NCBI GenBank assembly: GCA_014360805.1
Contig: JACIWU010000005.1
Coordinates: 1,206-65,205, forward strand
Reading direction: 5' to 3'
From: Chloroflexota bacterium
Lineage (GTDB): Bacteria > Chloroflexota > Anaerolineae > DTLA01
DNA length: 64,000 nucleotides
This document shows, one piece after another, positions 11,019 through 64,000 of this stretch. Position 1 is the first letter of the stretch; each line of letters starts with the position of its first letter. Both the position numbers and the translations under genes were made by a program. Under the pieces are notes generated by a model, which was not told the origin of the DNA, searched no databases, and was given only the letters and a program-made list of their open reading frames with translations.

Positions 11019-11663
11019 ATGTACCGTCATCCCTACATTGCCATTGAAGGGCCCATCGGCGTAGGCAAGACCACGCTGGCCCGCCTTCTCCAGCCCGAAC
11101 TGGGCGCGTCGCTGCTGCTAGAAGTCTTTGAAGAAAACCCGTTTCTGAAGGACTTCTACCGCGACCGAGAGCGCTACGCCTTCCAGACGCAGATCTTCTT
11201 CCTGCTCAGCCGCTACCACCAGCAACACAAAGCCGTCCCCAAGGCGTTGGAAAAAGGCCCCCTCATCAGCGACTACACCTTCGCCAAAGACCGCATCTTC
11301 GCGCACCTGAACCTGCGCAACGAAGAACTGGCGCTGTACGAGCAACTCCACGCCGCGATGGCCGAGAAGATTCCCGTGCCCACGCTGGTCATCTACCTGC
11401 GCGCATCCTTGGACGCGCTGATGGAACGGATCGCCCTGCGCGACCGCCCCTACGAGCGCAACATGGACCGCGACTACATCCGCGAACTCAGCGAAGCCTA
11501 CGAGCGGTTCTTTGAGCATTATACCCAAAGTCCGGTTTTGACGCTAGACACGGACACCCTGAACTACGTCCGCAATTCCGACGACCTGAACCTGGTCCTG
11601 GAGCGAGTCCGAAGCGCCCTGCGCCACGCGCCGTACCAGCAGCCGCTCATTGAAATCCCGTAG
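11019..11663 (+). CDS. Deoxynucleoside kinase (dAK/dCK/dGK family), paralog 1
   Basis: IAIEGPIGVGKTTLARLL P-loop. dNK-family length and motifs (ERY..FQ, DRI). Confidence 0.8.
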   Translation: MYRHPYIAIEGPIGVGKTTLARLLQPELGASLLLEVFEENPFLKDFYRDRERYAFQTQIFFLLSRYHQQHKAVPKALEKGPLISDYTFAKDRIFAHLNLRNEELALYEQLHAAMAEKIPVPTLVIYLRASLDALMERIALRDRPYERNMDRDYIRELSEAYERFFEHYTQSPVLTLDTDTLNYVRNSDDLNLVLERVRSALRHAPYQQPLIEIP

Positions 11664-11721: not shown

Positions 11722-12357
11722 ATGGGCAAGTTTATCGCAGTGGCGGGGAATGTGGGCGTCGGCAAGTCCACGCTGACACACCTGTTGAGCGCGCGGCTGG
11801 GCTGGGAGCCGTTCTATGAAGCCGTGGACGACAACCCGTATCTGGCGGACTTCTACAGCGACATGCGGCGATGGAGTTTCCACTCGCAGATCTTCTTCCT
11901 GTCGCGCCGCCTGCGCCACCATCGGGAAATCCTCAGCCACCCCAATACGGTGATCCAGGACCGCAGCGTGTACGAAGACGCGGAAATCTTCGCCCGCAAC
12001 CTGTATCTCCAGGGGCACATGCAGGCCCGCGACTACCGCTGCTACCGCGAATTGTACGAGGTGCTGACCCAGTTCCTGCCCCCGCCGGACCTGGTCGTGT
12101 ACCTGCGGGCCTCGGTGCCCACGCTCCAGCATCGCATCGCGCTGCGCGGGCGCGACTTTGAACGCCAGATTCCCGACGAGTACCTGGCCCAGTTGAACAC
12201 CCTGTACGAGGACTGGATTGAAGGCTTCACCCTCTGCCCTGTGCTCACGGTTCCCGCCGACCAGTTGGACTTCGTGAAGTACAACTCGCACCTTGAGTTG
12301 ATCTGCGAGAAAATCCTAGACAAACTTCAGGGGAAGGAAGTCGTCGTCTTTGACTGA
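11722..12357 (+). CDS. Deoxynucleoside kinase, paralog 2 (tandem with 11019..11663)
   Basis: IAVAGNVGVGKSTLTHLL P-loop. About 35% identical to the upstream paralog by eye. Tandem dAK/dGK-like arrangement. Confidence 0.8.
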   Translation: MGKFIAVAGNVGVGKSTLTHLLSARLGWEPFYEAVDDNPYLADFYSDMRRWSFHSQIFFLSRRLRHHREILSHPNTVIQDRSVYEDAEIFARNLYLQGHMQARDYRCYRELYEVLTQFLPPPDLVVYLRASVPTLQHRIALRGRDFERQIPDEYLAQLNTLYEDWIEGFTLCPVLTVPADQLDFVKYNSHLELICEKILDKLQGKEVVVFD

Positions 12358-12374: not shown

Positions 12375-12810
12375 ACTTCGCGCAGATTCGTACTATTCGT
12401 AGATGCGCATGACCCCGCGCGGGGCTGAACCCCCGCGCTACGTGGGCGAAGCCCCCTCCGGGGGCTAACCCCAGCCCGCAGGGCATCGCCCTCTCAGCCC
12501 GATGCTTCAGCGTCGGGCGGGCACGCCAGCACATCCCCTCTCCCACTGGGAGAGGGCTAGGGTGAGGGGCGACGCGCGGGGCTGAACCCCCGCGCTACGT
12601 GGGCGAAGCCTCCTCCGGGGGCTAACCCCAGCCCGCAGGGCTTCGCCCTCTCAGCCCGATGCTTCAGCGTCGGGCGACAAGGAACCGCGAACCCACGCGA
12701 ATAAACGCGAATTTGCCCCAGCCCGCAGGGCTTCGCCCCTTCAGCCCGATGCTTCAGCGTCGGGCTGAACACCCTTCGCGCAGATTCGTGTGATTCCTGG
12801 ATGCCCATGA
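12375..12810. repeat. Non-coding structured repeat block (family B). Two full ~100-bp copies (12415..12508 and 12574..12676) and one partial copy (12716..12776), bracketed by about 35-bp direct repeats (12376..12413 and 12774..12812)
   Basis: The unit gggctgaacccccgcgctacgtgggcgaagccccctccgggggctaaccccagcccgcagggcttcgccctctcagcccgatgcttcagcgtcgggcg contains nested inverted repeats: gggcgaagcc/ggcttcgccc, ccccctccggggg and cagcccga/tcgggctg. ORFs 12316..12546 and 12557..12808 in the track are artefacts of this block. Confidence 0.8.
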
Positions 12811-14392: not shown

Positions 14393-14582
14393 CCCGTAGC
14401 CCATCCGTAGGGCAGGTTTCCATACCTGACCTATGGATGGGGGGGCAGCCCGCAGGGGGTTACCCCTCACATCCCCCTGACCCCCTTCTCTCCCCGCAGG
14501 CGGGGCGAAAAGGGGGAATGGGCGCGCGGGGCTGGGCCGTCTCCTCTCCCGCCGAGAGTATGGGCGACGCATGCGGTAGGAG

Positions 14583-18763: not shown

Positions 18764-18897
18764 GCCGAAGGCAGAGGGCAGGTATGGAAACCTGCCCTAC
18801 ACTCGCCATGGGTTGGCGCCGCAATCCCAAGACCCGTAGGGCGGCTTTCCATAGCCGCCCAAGGCAGAAGCCGGGCACGGAAACCTGCCCTACGGCC
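18764..18897. repeat. Family A double-hairpin repeat: one partial copy (18764..18800) and one full copy (18836..18897)
   Basis: cgtagggcggctttccatagccgcc...ggaaacctgccctacgg. Matches copies at 22251, 22359, 32468, 41750, 51890 and 63834. Confidence 0.8.
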
Positions 18898-19036
18898 CAT
18901 TCGTTTCATGCTGCCGCCCGTCGGTCTGCCAAGTTCCCACCGAAATGTACACGGTGCACACTACCCTCAGCGCACCATTTGTCGCACCGCGCCGTGCTGT
19001 GGTACAATTCGGCACGCTTCGGAGGCGCAAGGACGC

Positions 19037-22250: not shown

Positions 22251-22412
22251 CTGCGGGGCGGCTTCCCATAGCCGCCAACAGGGCAGGTATGGAAACCTGC
22301 CCTACGTATCCACGAATAACACGAATTCACACGAATGGAGAATAGACCCCAAAAGTTTCGTAGGGCGGCTTCCCATAGCCGCCAACAGGGCAGGTATGGA
22401 AACCTGCCCTAC
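22251..22412. repeat. Two tandem family A double-hairpin copies (22251..22310 and 22359..22412) with a conserved cgaataacacgaat flank
   Basis: ggcggcttcccatagccgccaacagggcaggtatggaaacctgccctac occurs twice. Track ORFs 22213..22434 and 22096..22278 are artefacts of this repeat. Confidence 0.8.
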
Positions 22413-22466
22413 TACATTCGCGCGATTCGCGTGATTCGCGGTTACAATTCCCCCATTCGCAGGCGC

Positions 22467-27659: not shown

Positions 27660-27950
27660 GGCGGGGCGCACACCCCACCCCAACCCCATTCGCGTGGATT
27701 CGCGCGATTCGCGATGACGGTTGGGGGCGACAACGTGCGCCGCACCTTCGCCTCCGCCGCAGGCAGGGAATGTAGAGCAAATTGGCAATTTGCTCTACAC
27801 GCGCGGGGCTAACCCCAGCCCGCAGGGCTTTGCACCTTCAGCCCGATGCTTTAGCGTCAGGCCGGCGGGGCGCACACCCCACCCCAACCCCCATTCGCGT
27901 GGATTCGCGCGATTCGCGATGACGGTTGGGGGCGACAACGTGCGCCGCAA
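27660..27950. repeat. Composite repeat region: an approximately 85-bp direct repeat (27660..27745 and 27862..27950) flanking a partial family B copy (27801..27862)
   Basis: ggcgcacaccccaccccaaccccattcgcgtggattcgcgcgattcgcgatgacggttgggggcgacaacgtgcgccgca occurs twice. Between them, gctaaccccagcccgcagggctttgcaccttcagcccgatgctttagcgtcagg matches the 12.4-kb repeat unit. Confidence 0.8.
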
Positions 27951-32467: not shown

Positions 32468-32528
32468 GCGTAGGGCAGGTTTCCATACCTGCCCCCTGCG
32501 TCCGGCGGCTATGGAAAGCCGCCCTACG
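32468..32528. repeat. Family A double-hairpin repeat, inverted orientation
   Basis: cgtagggcaggtttccatacctgccccctgcgtccggcggctatggaaagccgccctacg. Confidence 0.8.
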
Positions 32529-32638
32529 AACTCGGAAAAGGTCGCTTCGGATGCTGCGCGCCCTCGCAACGCCGCGCCAACGGACGTTGGAACCGAGCCT
32601 TCCCCAGCCCCGCACAAAGCCCGCGCCCCAAGCCCCCA

Positions 32639-39561: not shown

Positions 39562-40179
39562 TCACCCCGTCTGCGAAATCTCGTCGGGGACGCCGTCGTT
39601 GTACACGCCCTCGCGCCGAAGCACGACCCCCACCGTCTGCCACAGGATTTTCAGATCAAGGGCGTAGGACCAATGATCCACGTACCAGACATCGCGCTCT
39701 ATGCGCTGGGGCCAGGTGAGTTGATTCCTGCCGTTGACCTGGGCCAGGCCGGTTACGCCCGGGCGCACCAGCAGTCGCCGCCGCTGGAAGTCGTTGTACT
39801 TCTCCACCTGGTAGGCCAGCGTGGGCCGCGGCCCCACCAGGCTCATGTCGCCCACCAGGATGTTGAAGAACTGCGGCAGTTCGTCCAGGCTGTACTGGCG
39901 CAGGAAGCGGCCCACCCTCGTTACGCGGGGGTCGTTGTCGTGGGTGTGATACCCCAGCGGGTGCGCGGTGGCGTTCTGCACCATGGTGCGAAACTTGAAG
40001 ATGCGGAAGATGCGCCCATCCTTGCCCACGCGCTCCTGCCGGAAGAAGACCGGGCCGGGCGAATCCAACTTGATCGCAACCGCGATGACGAGGAACACCG
40101 GCGCCAGGAGCGCCAGGCCGACGACCGAGACCACGATGTCCGTCGCCCGTTTGAGAAACCGCTGAAACGCCACGCTCAT
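39562..40179 (-). CDS. Undecaprenyl-phosphate sugar phosphotransferase, small PglC/WbaP-C-terminal type (bacterial sugar transferase family). Start at MSVAFQ, abutting the upstream gene's stop
   Basis: Single N-terminal TM. KFRTM...[21 protein letters not shown] catalytic motifs. Confidence 0.8.
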
Positions 40180-41597
40180 CGCCTGCAACCGTACTGCGCC
40201 ACGCACCGGAAGCCCTCGTAGGCGCTGGAGTTGTCCACGGCGCTGTCCAGTTTCACCTGATTCACGATGGCCACCAACTCGTCGCCGGGCGCGCCTTCCA
40301 CGACCACGGAGTACTGGGCGTTGTTGGCCAGGTCGGCGTCGCTATACGTCCAGGGCCGCTCGGCCACCGACCGTCCCGGAGCCAGGGCGTAGTTCTTGAG
40401 GCCGGCGTTGGGCCACTCGGTGCCGGTGTTGAAGTCGTAGTAACGCACTGTTACCGTGGCCGTAACCGCGCCCACGTTCTGGATGATGATGGGCGTGATG
40501 TAGCCGTAGTAGCCCTTGACCACGTTGGGCAGGAACACGTACTGCGCGCCTTCGTTGAAGCCGTTGTAGGCCGAGCCGTCCTTGTGATCGGCCAGGTTGC
40601 GGTTCTGATTGACGATGGCCACCAGTTCGTCGCCCGGCTGCCCCCGCACCACGACGGAATACTGCTTGTTGGGCGGCAGAACGTTGTCGGGGTAGGTCCA
40701 CGGGCGCTCGGGCAGGGAGCGGCCCGGCTTCAGTTCGTAGTTCTTCTTGCCGGCCAGCGGGTAGAACGTGCCATCAAACCCGTAGTACTCCACGTTGACG
40801 TAGGCCGTTGTCGTGCCGACATTCTGGATGATGGCGGGGGTGATGTAGCCCGCGTACCCCTTGACCATATTGGGCAGGTACACATTCGGCCCGCCCGACG
40901 GGAAGCCCGAATAGGCCAGGTCGGTGTCGCGCCCGACCTGGTTCACCGCGCCGACGATGGACTGCCCGACGTCCGCCGTCGCCACCACCGCGTACTGTTT
41001 GTTGGTGGGCAGTTCGGAGTTGGGGGCAACCGCCGGGTCGTACTCGTAACTAACGTTGGGCGGCAGGACGATCACGCGCTTGGCGCTCTCAATGGGGTTG
41101 CCGGTATTGAAGTCAAAGAACTCAATGGTAACCGTGGCGTCGGTGTCGCCGCTGTTCTGGATGTAGAACGGCGTGCTGAAGCCATAGTAGTGCTTGGTGA
41201 TGTTGGGCAGGAAGACCTTGCGCGTGCCCGGTTCCAGGGCGTTGTAGGCCATCTCGCGGCCCGTGGCCAGTTCGTTGACCACCCCCGCCAGCGGACGGGT
41301 GCCGTGGATGACCATGGAGTACATGCCGTCGGTGAGAGCGGGGTCGGGGTTGAGATAGGGGCGGACGGCGCGCGCGCGGCCCGGCTCCAACTGGAAGGTC
41401 TCGCGGGCCGAGGGGATGTACGCGCTGTCGGACATGCGGTAGTAGTCCACGAAGACCGTGGCCGTAGCGTCGCCCATGTTCTGCACGACGACCGGCGAGC
41501 GCCAGACCATCCCCGGCGGGTAACTGCCCTGTCCCTGCGCCGCGATGGGGAGGAGCAGGACGATCACGGCCACGGCGACGACCAGCGACTTTCTCAT
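40176..41597 (-). CDS. Secreted hypothetical protein with four tandem repeats of about 95 aa. Start at ATG 41597 (MRKSLVVAVAVIVLLLPIAAQG), with AAGGAGGG RBS
   Basis: Signal peptide. Repeat core (V/F)(F/Y)LPN(I/M/V)(T/V)K.Y.G..TP..IQN.G...A.V.(I/V)E(F/Y)(F/Y).F. The 56-codon upstream extension in the track is rejected. Confidence 0.65.
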   Translation of the reverse strand: MRKSLVVAVAVIVLLLPIAAQGQGSYPPGMVWRSPVVVQNMGDATATVFVDYYRMSDSAYIPSARETFQLEPGRARAVRPYLNPDPALTDGMYSMVIHGTRPLAGVVNELATGREMAYNALEPGTRKVFLPNITKHYYGFSTPFYIQNSGDTDATVTIEFFDFNTGNPIESAKRVIVLPPNVSYEYDPAVAPNSELPTNKQYAVVATADVGQSIVGAVNQVGRDTDLAYSGFPSGGPNVYLPNMVKGYAGYITPAIIQNVGTTTAYVNVEYYGFDGTFYPLAGKKNYELKPGRSLPERPWTYPDNVLPPNKQYSVVVRGQPGDELVAIVNQNRNLADHKDGSAYNGFNEGAQYVFLPNVVKGYYGYITPIIIQNVGAVTATVTVRYYDFNTGTEWPNAGLKNYALAPGRSVAERPWTYSDADLANNAQYSVVVEGAPGDELVAIVNQVKLDSAVDNSSAYEGFRCVAQYGCRR

Positions 41598-41643
41598 GAC
41601 GCCCTCCTTGTGTGCGCCCCCCAAGTTCCCCCTTGCCGCGCCA

Positions 41644-41672
41644 TTATAGCGTGCCCCGCGAAAAATGACAAC
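41644..41672 (-). promoter_or_regulatory. Candidate promoter for the repeat-protein gene: -35 TTGTCA, 17 bp spacer, -10 TATAAT, within cGTGCTATAATgg
   Basis: About 40-nt leader to the RBS and ATG. Confidence 0.5.
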
Positions 41673-41700
41673 TGGGTGCGGGCTGCGCGAGCGTTCCCAC

Positions 41701-41729
41701 CTGCGACGCACCTCGGAGGTGCGTCGCAG
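41701..41729. repeat. Family C palindrome ctgcgacgcacctcggaggtgcgtcgcag
   Basis: 12-bp perfect arms around a ctcgga loop. Related copies at 43567, 47952 and 56558. Confidence 0.7.
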
Positions 41730-41749
41730 GTTGAGCCGCATAGCGAGCA

Positions 41750-41803
41750 CAGGGCGGGTTCCCATTACCTGCGCCCCCGGCGGCTATGGAAAGCCGCCCT
41801 ACG
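41750..41803. repeat. Family A double-hairpin repeat (inverted orientation, first hairpin degenerate) with the shared cgaataacacgaat flank to 41850
   Basis: cagggcgggttcccattacctgcgcccccggcggctatggaaagccgccctacg. Confidence 0.75.
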
Positions 41804-41855
41804 TGCCCACATTTATTCCCATTCGCGTGGATTCGTGTTATTCGTGGATAAGCGC

Positions 41856-43124
41856 CTACCGAATCACCTCCACCCCGCCCATGTACGGGCGCAGCACCTC
41901 GGGCACCACAATGCTCCCGTCGGCCTGCTGGTAGTTTTCCATCACCGCGATCATGACGCGGGGCAGCGCCAGTCCCGACCCGTTGAGCGTGTGCACGTAC
42001 TCGGGTTTTGCGCCCGCCTCGCGGCGGAAGCGAATGTTGGCGCGCCGCGCCTGGAAGTCCAGGAAGTTGGAGCATGAGGAGACCTCCAGCCACTCGCCGC
42101 AGCCCGGCGCCCACATCTCCACGTCGTACTTGGCAGCGGCGGTGAAGGACAAATCTCCCGTGCACATCTGCACCACGCGGTGCGGAATGCCCAGTTTCCG
42201 GCACACGTCCTCGGCGTTGTCAATCAGGGTTTCCAGTTCCTGCATGGACGTTTCGGGCGCGACGATCTTCACCATCTCCACCTTGTCAAACTGATGGCCG
42301 CGCTTGATGCCCCTCACGTCGCGGCCCGCGCTCATCTTCTCGCGTCGCCAGCACGGCGTGTACGCCACATAGTACAGAGGCAGCGTGCCGGGGTCCAGGA
42401 TCTCCTCGCGGTGCAGGTTGGTTACCGGCACCTCGGCGGTGGGCACCCACCATAGGTCGTCCTCCACGTCGTGGTAGAGGTTCTCGCCGAACTTGGGCAA
42501 CTGCCCCGTGCCCCACAGGCACTTCTCGTTGACCACGAACGGCGGATAGACCTCGGTATAGCCGTGTTCGTTCACGTGCAAATCCAGCATCCACGCGATG
42601 AGGGCGCGCTGGAGCCGAGCGCCCAGTCCCCTGAGCACGTAGAACCGCGCGCCGGCGATCTTCACGCCGCGCTCAAAGTCCAGGATGCCCAGCGCAGGCC
42701 CCAAATCCCAGTGGGGCAGCGGCTGGAAGTCAAACTGCCGCGGCTCGCCCACGGTGCGGACGATCACGTTGTGGGTCTCGTCGGGGCCCACGGGGACGCC
42801 GGGCGCCGGCATGTTGGGCACTTCGTACAGCGCCGCCGTCAGCCGTTCGTCCACGGCCTTCAGTTCCGTTTCCAGTTCGCGGATTTGGTCGCCCACCTGG
42901 CGCATCTCGGCCACCAACTGCTCCCGCTGGGCGGCGTCCTTGATGCGGGGAATCTCCCTGGACACCGCGTTGCGCCGCGCCCGCAGGCTTTCCACCACCT
43001 GCAGCAGTTCGCGCCTGCGCCGGTCCAGTTGCAGGATTTCGTCAATGGGCGCGGTGGTGTTCAAGTCCACCAGCGCCTGCTTCACCTCGTCGGCGTGCTC
43101 GCGTATGAAGTTGAGGTCTAGCAT
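41856..43124 (-). CDS. serS: Seryl-tRNA synthetase. Start at ATG 43124 ([15 protein letters not shown]) with AAGGAGGG RBS; the 155-codon in-frame upstream extension is rejected
   Basis: Class II aaRS motifs 1-3. N-terminal coiled-coil arm. 423 aa. Confidence 0.93.
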
Positions 43125-43198
43125 TTTCTCCCTCCTTGACACAACGACTCTCCGGATTGTCCATGCCGCACGGCGCGGCCCCGAAAAACGAAAAGGCC

Positions 43199-43216
43199 CC
43201 CATCCGAAAGGACGGG
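43199..43216 (-). terminator. Leader hairpin CCCGUCC-UUUC-GGAUGGG (extendable to 9 bp) followed by GGCCUUUUCGUUUUUC, about 60 nt upstream of the serS ATG. Candidate attenuator/terminator
   Basis: Read on the minus-strand transcript. Confidence 0.45.
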
Positions 43217-43484
43217 AGCCTCGGCTACCGTGTTGCCACCTTCCTGCGCCTGCCCCTCGCGGAGCAGACCTCAGTGGGTCGGCGCGCGTCCGACCCTGCC
43301 CTGTAACGGGGGCCACCGGCTCGGCATACTCCGGGCGGATGCCTCCGCCCGTTTCCGCCTGCGACTCCGGAGTGCTTTTCGGCCGGGCCGTGCTGCCGCT
43401 TTCCACCTGCTGCGGCTCTCTGGGAGCCGTGCGCCGCGACCTACTCGTCTCCATCACCGTCGTTGCTATACGCTTGTTGTCAAC

Positions 43485-43513
43485 ATTATGGCGCGAACCC
43501 GCGTCGGTGTCAA
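43485..43513 (-). promoter_or_regulatory. Candidate serS promoter: -35 TTGACA, 17 bp spacer, -10 CATAAT. Implies a 5' leader of about 350 nt
   Basis: Read on the minus strand. Confidence 0.45.
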
Positions 43514-43566
43514 ATCGGCCCCGCGCCAGGCCGGGTTCTATTTTGTGTTGGCGTGCGAGGTGCGAC

Positions 43567-43602
43567 GCACTTCCGGAAGTGCGTCGCACCTCGGATCAGG
43601 GT
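43567..43602. repeat. Family C: perfect 36-bp palindrome gaggtgcgacgcacttccggaagtgcgtcgcacctc
   Basis: Exact reverse-complement identity over 36 nt, checked by hand. Confidence 0.85.
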
Positions 43603-47951: not shown

Positions 47952-47984
47952 GAGTGCGACACACTTTCGGAAGTGCGTCGTGCC
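47952..47984. repeat. Family C imperfect palindrome gagtgcgacacactttcggaagtgcgtcgtgcc
   Basis: Shares the gtgcgtcg core and ttcgga loop with the other family C copies. Confidence 0.6.
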
Positions 47985-48021
47985 TTCGGTCGCTAACACA
48001 AGACGGAGCCGAATGCGAAAC

Positions 48022-51739: not shown

Positions 51740-51889
51740 CCCATCGCCGCCACGCACTGCGCGGCCAAGACCTTGAGGGCATCCGAGGCCCTCAAGGTCT
51801 CTGTCCCCGCCCGCGCACTCGGTTCCAAACTCCGTTGGTCGCAGCACAGGTACAAGTGCGTCGCGCCTCGCTCACCAACACAATAGACA

Positions 51890-51943
51890 CGTAGGGCGGC
51901 TTTCCATAGCCACCGAAGGGCAGGTATGGAAACCTGCCCTACG
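51890..51943. repeat. Family A double-hairpin repeat (canonical orientation)
   Basis: cgtagggcggctttccatagccaccgaagggcaggtatggaaacctgccctacg. Confidence 0.8.
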
Positions 51944-52022
51944 CTCTTTGCCTTTCATGCTGCCGCCCATCGTTCCGACAAGTTTGCACCGAAAGGTATA
52001 CACACCCCCTCCCCGGAAAGCC

Positions 52023-52052
52023 TTGACGCCGTCTTCCAACATGTGCTATAAT
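52023..52052 (+). promoter_or_regulatory. Candidate promoter: TTGACG, 18 bp spacer, extended -10 TGcTATAAT
   Basis: About 50 nt upstream of the 52110 ATG. GGAGG RBS at 52097. Confidence 0.5.
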
Positions 52053-57432: not shown

Positions 57433-57542
57433 GTGCTAGTAAACCCAAGTACCCGCCAGCCGCCCCTCGGGGTCGTACAAATGTGCCTCGTCGCGGCTTC
57501 GCCGTTCAGAATGACAGCCCTCGGAGTTCGCGTAGATTCGTG

Positions 57543-58202
57543 TTATCCGTGGATATGTCGCGGCGCGGTGTCGCCCTGCGGCTCCTCTCCCCGCTTGTCC
57601 CAGCCTTCCGGCTCCAGCAGGTAGCGCAGCGCCACCGCGCCGATGACCGACACCACCGAGAACAGGAACAGCGCCGCCAGCACGCCCGACAGCACCATGA
57701 CCCCCGCCATCACAACCACGATGACCAGCAGAACCAGATTGAACAGCGGTCGGGACACGGCCAGGATGGCCGCGTTCTTGAAAAGCGCCCTCACGCTCTT
57801 GTCCCGTTGGTACACCAGCAGCGGGAACAGGTAGAACTGGAGCGCCAGCCACACGAACCCCACGAACGCCCACAGGATGACCAGCAGCCGCAGATAGGGA
57901 TCCGTCTGCCGACTGTAGAAAAGCAGGTTGATGAGCAGCAGGAACCACCCCACCAGCGAGGGAATGGCAACTTTCCAACTGTGCCATAGGTACATGCGAA
58001 AGCCAGCCCAGAAATCGCGCGGCGCAAAGGCCAGGCCGTGGGCCACGCGGTGCGCGACGAAGGCCGCCCCCGCCAGCGCGGGCGGAATCGTAACGACGGG
58101 CAGGCACATGAGCAGGGTAAACGAATTGACCCCCATGAGCATGAACATGTCGTCGTACACGTCGCGCAGGCTTCGCCACACGACGCGAAACGCATCAACC
58201 AC
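57543..58202 (-). CDS. Hypothetical polytopic membrane protein
   Basis: 219 aa, at least 5 TM. No recognisable motif. Overlaps the upstream gene by 8 nt. Confidence 0.5.
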   Translation of the reverse strand: MVDAFRVVWRSLRDVYDDMFMLMGVNSFTLLMCLPVVTIPPALAGAAFVAHRVAHGLAFAPRDFWAGFRMYLWHSWKVAIPSLVGWFLLLINLLFYSRQTDPYLRLLVILWAFVGFVWLALQFYLFPLLVYQRDKSVRALFKNAAILAVSRPLFNLVLLVIVVVMAGVMVLSGVLAALFLFSVVSVIGAVALRYLLEPEGWDKRGEEPQGDTAPRHIHG

Positions 58203-63689: not shown

Positions 63690-63833
63690 GTGCGCGGTCT
63701 CGCATTCCTCTCGGATTCACAGGGTCATTATAGCCAAAGGCGGCGCGGGCGCAAGGGACGGGCGCAAACGATAGTGTATACATTTCGGTGGAGACTTACC
63801 AGACCGATGAGCGGCAGCATGAAACGCATAGAG

Positions 63834-63895
63834 CGTAGGGCGGGTTTCCATACCTGCCCCCTCTGCCTTCGGCGGCTATGGAAAGCCGCCCTACG
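63834..63895. repeat. Family A double-hairpin repeat (inverted orientation); a degenerate partial copy follows at about 63915..63960
   Basis: cgtagggcgggtttccatacctgccccctctgccttcggcggctatggaaagccgccctacg. Confidence 0.8.
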
Positions 63896-64000
63896 TGTCT
63901 CGGCATTGCGCCGCCCACCCATGGCGAGCACGGGATCGGTTTCCATGCCTGGCCCCAACATCTGTGGTCTGCGTTACGCAATTCTTACCGAAAAAGACAC

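Follow-up and report, generated by a model that had tools for sequence, protein, structure and literature searches.

A probable GTAG-tagged REP family of head-to-head hairpin units in Chloroflexota, with a linked RAYT gene

GTAG-tagged REPs, head-to-head dimers, REPINs and the flanking of RAYT genes by such repeats are established (PMC3733652, PMC3116915, PMC2817692), and GTAG repeats are also known in Chloroflexi, where GTAG-23 occurs in Thermomicrobium roseum and Roseiflexus castenholzii (PMC3733652). The E. coli enzyme TnpArep acts on REPs only as single-stranded DNA and needs both the GTAG and the hairpin; the reaction proceeds via a 5'-phosphotyrosine intermediate, and the enzyme catalyses strand exchange and cuts at C|T, also within the CTAC of an inverted REP (PMC3333891). 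Recognition of small perfect-palindrome REPs requires specific bases in the loop (PMC8266576).

The repeat described here, family A, was encountered in a stretch of DNA of 64,000 nucleotides (the window, i.e. the whole stretch that was analysed). The initial annotation did not recognise it as a named family, yet it most probably belongs to the GTAG-tagged REPs, with REPIN/BIME-like dimers beside a RAYT gene (PMC3733652).

Copies and anatomy of family A in the window

The window contained 15 clear family A units, 24-29 nt long, most of them within seven inverted doublets of 55-65 bp. A single-unit covariance model (CM R1), run unfiltered, returned 15 units at E <= 1.3e-4. Word counts were far above expectation: the 20-mers GGCAGGTATGGAAACCTGCC and GGCGGCTTTCCATAGCCGCC had 7 and 8 matches at up to 3 mismatches (0.01 and 0.00 expected, respectively), and the octamer TATGGAAA occurred 15 times against 0.29 by chance. 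Repeat finding recovered the same loci in both orientations. All copies listed by the initial annotation lay at or within a few bases of where it had placed them, again in both orientations; the single unit 14405-14433 had escaped it.

Each unit consists of an unpaired 5'-(C)GTAG tag followed by a 7-bp stem (GGC-R-G-S-T / A-S-C-Y-GCC; in general form GGC-N1-G-N2-T ... A-N3-C-N4-GCC) and a TTCCAT loop. Two stems dominate, GGCGGCT/AGCCGCC ("GC-type") and GGCAGGT/ACCTGCC ("AG-type"), which differ by two compensatory pairs. The consensus proposed earlier (cGTAGGGC-GGCGGCT...) was three bases too long and should read CGTAGGGCGGCTTTCCATAGCCGCC. In about 75% of units the base opposite the final G of the tag is G or A, and the tag is accordingly considered unpaired. 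The GTAG columns and loop columns T15 and C16 were at least 90% conserved, a value that is partly built in since units were detected with a consensus (up to 4 mismatches) containing tag and loop; the four free stem positions are unaffected. The copies of the window are as follows.

14405..14433 (+): single AG-type unit; CM R1 34.1 bits, E = 5.7e-7
18774..18802 (-): single AG-type unit retaining half of the doublet spacer; CM 39.9 bits
18834..18895: head-to-head doublet, GC-type 18834-18862 (+) and degenerate AG-type 18867-18895 (-); CM 43.4 and 25.3 bits, fold, Pfam
22251..22307: head-to-head doublet, GC-type 22251-22279 (+) and AG-type 22279-22307 (-); CM 31.0 and 40.8 bits
22358..22414: head-to-head doublet, 22358-22386 (+) and 22386-22414 (-); CM 39.8 and 38.9 bits
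32468..32529: head-to-head doublet in opposite order, AG-type 32468-32496 (+) and GC-type 32501-32529 (-); CM 40.1 and 43.9 bits
41750..41804: doublet with decayed left unit 41750-41775 and intact GC-type 41776-41804 (-); CM 43.5 bits, right unit only
51889..51944: head-to-head doublet, the one originally flagged, GC-type 51889-51917 (+) and AG-type 51916-51944 (-); CM 40.7 and 40.7 bits, folds
63833..63896: head-to-head doublet, GG-type 63833-63861 (+) and GC-type 63868-63896 (-); CM 38.3 and 44.7 bits
63915..63960 (+): linker and decayed unit GGATCGGTTTCCATGCCTGGCC (near 63934-63957), recognised from sequence and complementarity to 18776-18868, without CM score

The pairing of the stem was examined in 148 distinct units, i.e. 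the 15 of the window and 133 from loci that had been fetched via a protein rather than via the repeat. Standard pairs occupied 97.3% of stem cells against 80.4% in shuffles, and compensatory changes on both sides, which the initial annotation had proposed to look for, were found at 7/7 stem pairs. Doubly changed cells numbered 144 against 35 in shuffles, the observed values being reached by 0/500 shuffles, and sliding the partner by 1-3 columns reduced pairing to only 32-48%. One pair position displayed GC, AT, CG and TA. Such free but complementary changes point to intrastrand pairing and not to base-specific recognition of a duplex.

The element is best read as one unit occurring twice, head to head, and not as a special double hairpin. 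The mutually complementary loops noted earlier do exist but are not informative in themselves, since the second unit is an inverted copy of the first. A kissing-loop pair was dropped as a candidate: the inverted arrangement by itself makes the loops complementary, and their bases are also used in the long hairpin. Likewise, only part of the proposed 8-bp outer stem CGTAGGGC/GCCCTACG stood; its GGC is shared with the inner stems, which leaves just about 5 bp (CGTAG/CTACG) that are compatible with both hairpins. In the form of single-stranded DNA or RNA, a doublet may adopt two hairpins or one long imperfect hairpin of nearly equal energy, with z of -4 to -8 for intact copies. The six intact doublets of the window displayed gaps of 4-12 nt; the flagged copy reads CGTAGGGCGGCTTTCCATAGCCACC-GAAG-GGCAGGTATGGAAACCTGCCCTACG.

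Close head-to-head dimers always combined a GC-type with an (A/G)G-type unit (6/6 in the window, 39/39 at listed genome loci and 36/36 at RAYT loci), while homotypic dimers would be expected to be common if units paired at random. This strict heterotypy suggests that the dimer is the unit that is copied; it may also reflect avoidance of a perfect long palindrome.

All 15 units of the window lay outside genes supported by third-position GC (GC3), in line with the intergenic location first described. Their neighbours are housekeeping genes without functional relationship (Pfam), coding for a PLP enzyme, a nitroreductase, a pol III delta-prime-like protein, a PHP-domain protein, sigma-70, SerS (serS), RNase Y, a DNA methylase and NAD kinase. 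The unit 14405-14433 lies 13 nt past the stop of the PLP-enzyme gene, with convergent genes on either side. Doublet 18834..18895 occupies a divergent intergenic region upstream of the DNA pol III delta-prime-like (holB-like) gene, doublet 32468..32529 separates the end of a DUF4340 gene from the start of the sigma-70 gene (Pfam), and the flagged doublet 51889..51944 lies between the end of the RNase Y gene and the DNA methylase gene (Pfam), with a promoter-like site downstream at 52023-52052 (promoter scan). Doublet 41750..41804, downstream of serS, has a weak fold (z = -2.2), and doublet 63833..63896, upstream of the NAD kinase gene, has the most stable one of the set (-25.2 kcal/mol, z = -8.0). 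In doublet 22251..22307 the tag of the GC-type unit has degenerated to GCGG; 50 nt of doublet 22358..22414 are 100% identical to this doublet, which lies 107 nt upstream. For annotation, open reading frames through family A units (GRYGNLPY, AAFHSR and similar peptides) are to be regarded as artefacts, as initially proposed: they are read-throughs of the repeat, and the same peptides occur in a spurious ORF of locus L117 (see below).

Further repeats were recorded in the window and at some of the loci from other genomes (numbered with L, see below). A second intergenic repeat consists of three ATTCG(C/T)G heptamers spaced by about 10 and 9 nt. It sometimes adjoins family A units and forms joint tandem arrays with them in relatives. 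It was rejected as an obligatory part of the element, many copies being kilobases away from any family A unit. A module of roughly 60 nt, TTTCATGCTGCCGC...CCACCGAAATGTATACAC, is in every case directly adjacent to a family A doublet and oriented toward a downstream gene (holB-like, DNA methylase and NAD kinase, with sigma-70-like promoter matches after 2/3 window copies). An interpretation as conserved small ORF or paralogous N-terminus was discarded, given mostly non-synonymous substitutions, unrelated downstream genes and a total of only 5 copies in roughly 1 Mb of sequence.

22311-22336 (-), 22416-22440 (+), 27688-27713, 27893-27918, 41811-41850: ATTCGYG triple repeat
12376-12401, 12774-12799, 57526-57551, also loci L053, L083 and L097: ATTCGYG triple repeat
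18895-18961 (+), 51944-52010 (+), 63767-63833 (-), L006 3728-3794, L022 1822-1889: module of about 60 nt

Regions 12416-12765 and 27760-27863 are packed with repeats (560-nt intergenic block). A second GTAG-tagged hairpin, GTAGCGCGGGGGTTCAGCCCCGCG, occurs there at 12418-12441 and 12575-12598 (-), in a block that also contains repeats of 50-104 nt. A GTAG palindrome, GTAGAGCAAATTGCCAATTTGCTCTAC, lies near 27772-27798. A perfect palindrome with 15-bp arms, GTGCGACGCACTTCC/GGAAGTGCGTCGCAC, was found at two intergenic positions (43558-43589 and 47954-47985), with a similar sequence in L097, and may be yet another repeat family. Elsewhere, a T-box leader-like element at 43205-43466 (-) scored 53.7 bits (E = 6.3e-9), under the Rfam gathering score of 93, immediately before the seryl-tRNA synthetase domains encoded by ORF 41856-43589, the real start of which is probably near 43140. 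Two tandem paralogous genes for deoxynucleoside kinases were recorded at 11019-11663 and 11722-12357 (+) (Pfam dNK, E = 8e-43 and 5e-55). ORF 40176-41765 (-), 529 aa long, had no Pfam match; it contains DNA repeats at intervals of about 345 nt, which suggest a repeated-domain protein.

Distribution and association with a RAYT gene

Family A was not confined to the window. Scanning species-representative genomes with GTAGGGCNGNTTYCCATANCNGCC uncovered at least 120 loci from at least 43 species-level assemblies, of which at least 39 were labelled Chloroflexota. Among the matches listed (L001-L120), most occurred in Anaerolineae/Anaerolineales, with others in Caldilineae, Thermoflexales, Chloroflexia and Ktedonobacterales, and the free N positions were overwhelmingly complementary (AG..CT 59, GC..GC 57, GG..CC 16). 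Three MAGs each carried at least 13-14 separate loci. Four listed matches fell under other phyla: two were unpaired and chance-like, the third was a true doublet, and the fourth, from a 2.2-kb contig, was a perfect unit; they do not count as evidence for spread beyond Chloroflexota. The best nucleotide match of the window itself was a GroEL gene (77%) of an Anaerolineae MAG, and the genome of the window was absent among the listed loci. Many listed matches lay a few dozen bases from MAG contig ends, which suggests that family A repeats break short-read assemblies and so fragment MAGs.

In relatives, units also occurred in tandem arrays with a period of about 92-110 nt. Clusters 18774-18895 and 63833-63960 of the window are short versions of such arrays. 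In the former, unit 18774..18802 clusters with the neighbouring doublet 18834..18895; segment 18776-18868 is 84% complementary to 63862-63954, and 63915..63960 is a remnant of the second period of the array.

The lead to locus L117 came from an E. coli RAYT query, and the ORF was then checked independently. This 173-aa ORF matched NCBIfam NF047646 (REP_Tyr_transpos, "REP-associated tyrosine transposase", equivalog) with 149.8 bits for a cutoff of 80, and Pfam Y1_Tnp ("Transposase IS200 like") with 28.5 bits. It aligned with TnpArep (PDB 4ER8, E = 1.4e-21) over both the HUH motif (HFH; LPDHFHW with LPEHMHC) and the YIxxNP tyrosine region (DYIHWNPVRHG with DYIYINPVKHG). The gene is flanked by family A units on both sides.

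A clear relationship was observed between RAYT similarity and repeat type. The L117 protein was used in a metagenome scan that gave 79 RAYT loci, where a family A unit was counted if it had at most 2 mismatches and lay at most 200 nt from the gene. Such a unit was present at 18/21 loci with RAYTs at least 65% identical to that of L117 and at 20/31 loci with RAYTs 57-64% identical (together 38/52), but at 0/27 loci with RAYTs at most 54% identical. Several of the 14/52 close-RAYT loci that had no unit at the 2-mismatch threshold had short flanks or diverged units. The nearest upstream unit was mostly on the strand of the RAYT gene and the nearest downstream unit mostly inverted, i.e. both pointed inward. 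Flanks of more distant RAYTs carried other GTAGG-hairpin repeats of the same design (e.g. GTAGGTCACGTTTGTAACGTGAC, GTAGGTCAGGCATTCTTGCCTGAC and GTAGGCCGGGTTTCACAACCCGGC), so that the type of repeat tracks the RAYT lineage. No RAYT gene was encoded in the 64-kb window, and the genome to which it belongs presumably carries the cognate one elsewhere.

Nature of the repeat

We regard it as highly probable that family A is a GTAG-tagged REP family, preferably arranged as a head-to-head REPIN/BIME-like dimer and processed by a RAYT as single-stranded DNA hairpins; the REP/MITE-like character first suspected was thus borne out. The RAYT is most likely the enzyme that spreads family A, as judged from the biochemistry of E. 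coli, Stenotrophomonas and Marinomonas, which also suggests its binding to single-stranded DNA and its cleavage site. When DNA is single-stranded, e.g. on the lagging-strand template, a unit would fold into its hairpin, and the cognate RAYT (TnpArep, an HUH/Y1 enzyme) would bind tag, stem and loop bases. It would then cut and rejoin nearby, probably at C|T within the CCCTAC of the inverted partner, and this reaction could copy or move doublets and build tandem arrays. From the perfect stem, the conserved T15 and C16 and the CCCTAC at the inverted partner, we infer such hairpin recognition and cut-and-rejoin by the RAYT of this clade.

Of the alternatives, an unlikely one is that family A has been co-opted as a genome-structuring or regulatory module, with accessory motifs upstream of housekeeping promoters and the RAYT as maintenance enzyme. 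It was considered because tag and loop are nearly unchanged across several Chloroflexota classes and alongside RAYTs down to about 57% identity, and because the dimers are obligately heterotypic.

A primary role at the RNA level appears similarly improbable. Transcribed hairpins would then stabilise mRNA 3' ends, serve as attenuators or constitute a small RNA family, and linkage with the RAYT would be secondary. Such a role would fit the very stable folds of doublet RNAs (-34 to -38 kcal/mol, z = -4.5 to -6.3), the excess of G.T over A.C pairs on the GTAG strand (about 45 vs 25 in units of RAYT loci) and the position of unit 14405-14433 just past a stop codon; mRNA fate is reportedly affected by E. 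coli REPs, and transcription has been suggested for many GTAG repeats (Di Nocera et al., PMC3733652). Yet the small structured RNA that had been envisaged initially found no match in Rfam at the repeats, whether the limit was the gathering threshold or E <= 1. Copies run either way relative to genes, a feature that the nearly palindromic doublet leaves unconstrained, and several of them are located in divergent promoter regions or precede promoter-like sites. A promoter scan placed no promoter inside the repeats but promoter-like sites downstream of two copies. An intrinsic-terminator scan of three regions with repeats found neither terminator-like sites nor T-rich tails, the units ending in CCCTACG. 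An RNA role also leaves unexplained why the type of repeat tracks the RAYT lineage, and is possible as a secondary use but unsupported as a primary one.

It is very unlikely that family A owes its conservation to a host protein that binds the duplex DNA, be it at an operator or at a nucleoid or gyrase site of the sort proposed for BIMEs. The unit is indeed palindromic, intergenic and often close to promoters, its loop bases are conserved in many species, and E. coli BIMEs are reportedly bound by IHF, gyrase and Pol I (PMC3333891, PMC2817692). However, a stem that varies freely as long as it remains complementary is not what such a site would display, copy number and tandem arrays fit a replicating element, and the neighbouring genes are functionally unrelated. 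Least probable of all are non-autonomous IS200/IS605 derivatives (MITE/PATE) mobilised by a classical TnpA(IS200) rather than a domesticated RAYT: the linked protein does match Pfam Y1_Tnp and that IS family is characterised by subterminal hairpins (PMC3333891), but the RAYT equivalog score of 149.8 bits contrasts with just 28.5 bits on the general Y1_Tnp model, units are GTAG-tagged, flanks are REP arrays devoid of distinct left and right IS ends, and an IS608 TnpA query (a weak test) had no credible match in the fetched loci.

Comparison with known systems

A literature search found no paper joining "repetitive extragenic palindromic" with Anaerolineae, and the family A stem-loop (GGCRGST-TTCCAT-ASCYGCC) was absent from the text and supplement sequences of the PMC3733652 catalogue, where neither TTTCCATA nor TATGGAAA occurred. 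GTAG-23 translates to other peptides and is therefore distinct in sequence from family A.

The closest resemblance is to the GTAG REP superfamily and REPINs (Nunvar 2010; Bertels & Rainey 2011; Di Nocera 2013, PMC3733652), with which family A shares the unpaired 5' GTAG before a stem of 6-9 bp. As in that superfamily (PMC3733652), sub-families are set apart by complementary stem changes, head-to-head dimers with GTAG outside are favoured, repeats are intergenic and the RAYT is flanked by its own repeats. The loop, in contrast, has 6 nt instead of the 2-4 nt typical of the catalogue in PMC3733652, and family A, common to at least 39 species-level Chloroflexota assemblies, has a wider distribution than most REP families.

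Like the BIMEs of E. coli (y, z1 and z2 REPs, PMC3333891), family A displays alternating inverted REPs with two stem types per pair, short variable linkers and tandem arrays. The likeness extends to the enzyme, as the HUH and Tyr regions of the family A RAYT align with those of E. coli TnpArep (PDB 4ER8, E = 1.4e-21), and to the CC|TAC cleavage context at the inverted partner. Yet E. coli TnpArep requires a bulge or mismatch, whereas the family A stem is perfectly palindromic, and family A is accompanied by the ATTCGYG triple repeat and the module of roughly 60 nt. In its short perfect stem, family A recalls the small perfect-palindrome REPs of S. maltophilia and Marinomonas ("group 3" REPtrons, PMC8266576). 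Loop bases are likely specificity determinants in both, T15 and C16 being at least 90% conserved in family A (partly by construction, see above), but the sequences are unrelated and the host phylum is another one.

With these data, the known range of REP-RAYT systems comes to include Anaerolineae and other Chloroflexota, for which a well-defined consensus and a linked clade of RAYTs are now available. They offer a non-proteobacterial test case for long-term co-inheritance of REPINs and RAYTs and for loop-based recognition of perfect-palindrome REPs. In kind, family A is an ordinary REP/REPIN family that involves no new mechanism, and its breadth across Chloroflexota is mildly notable.
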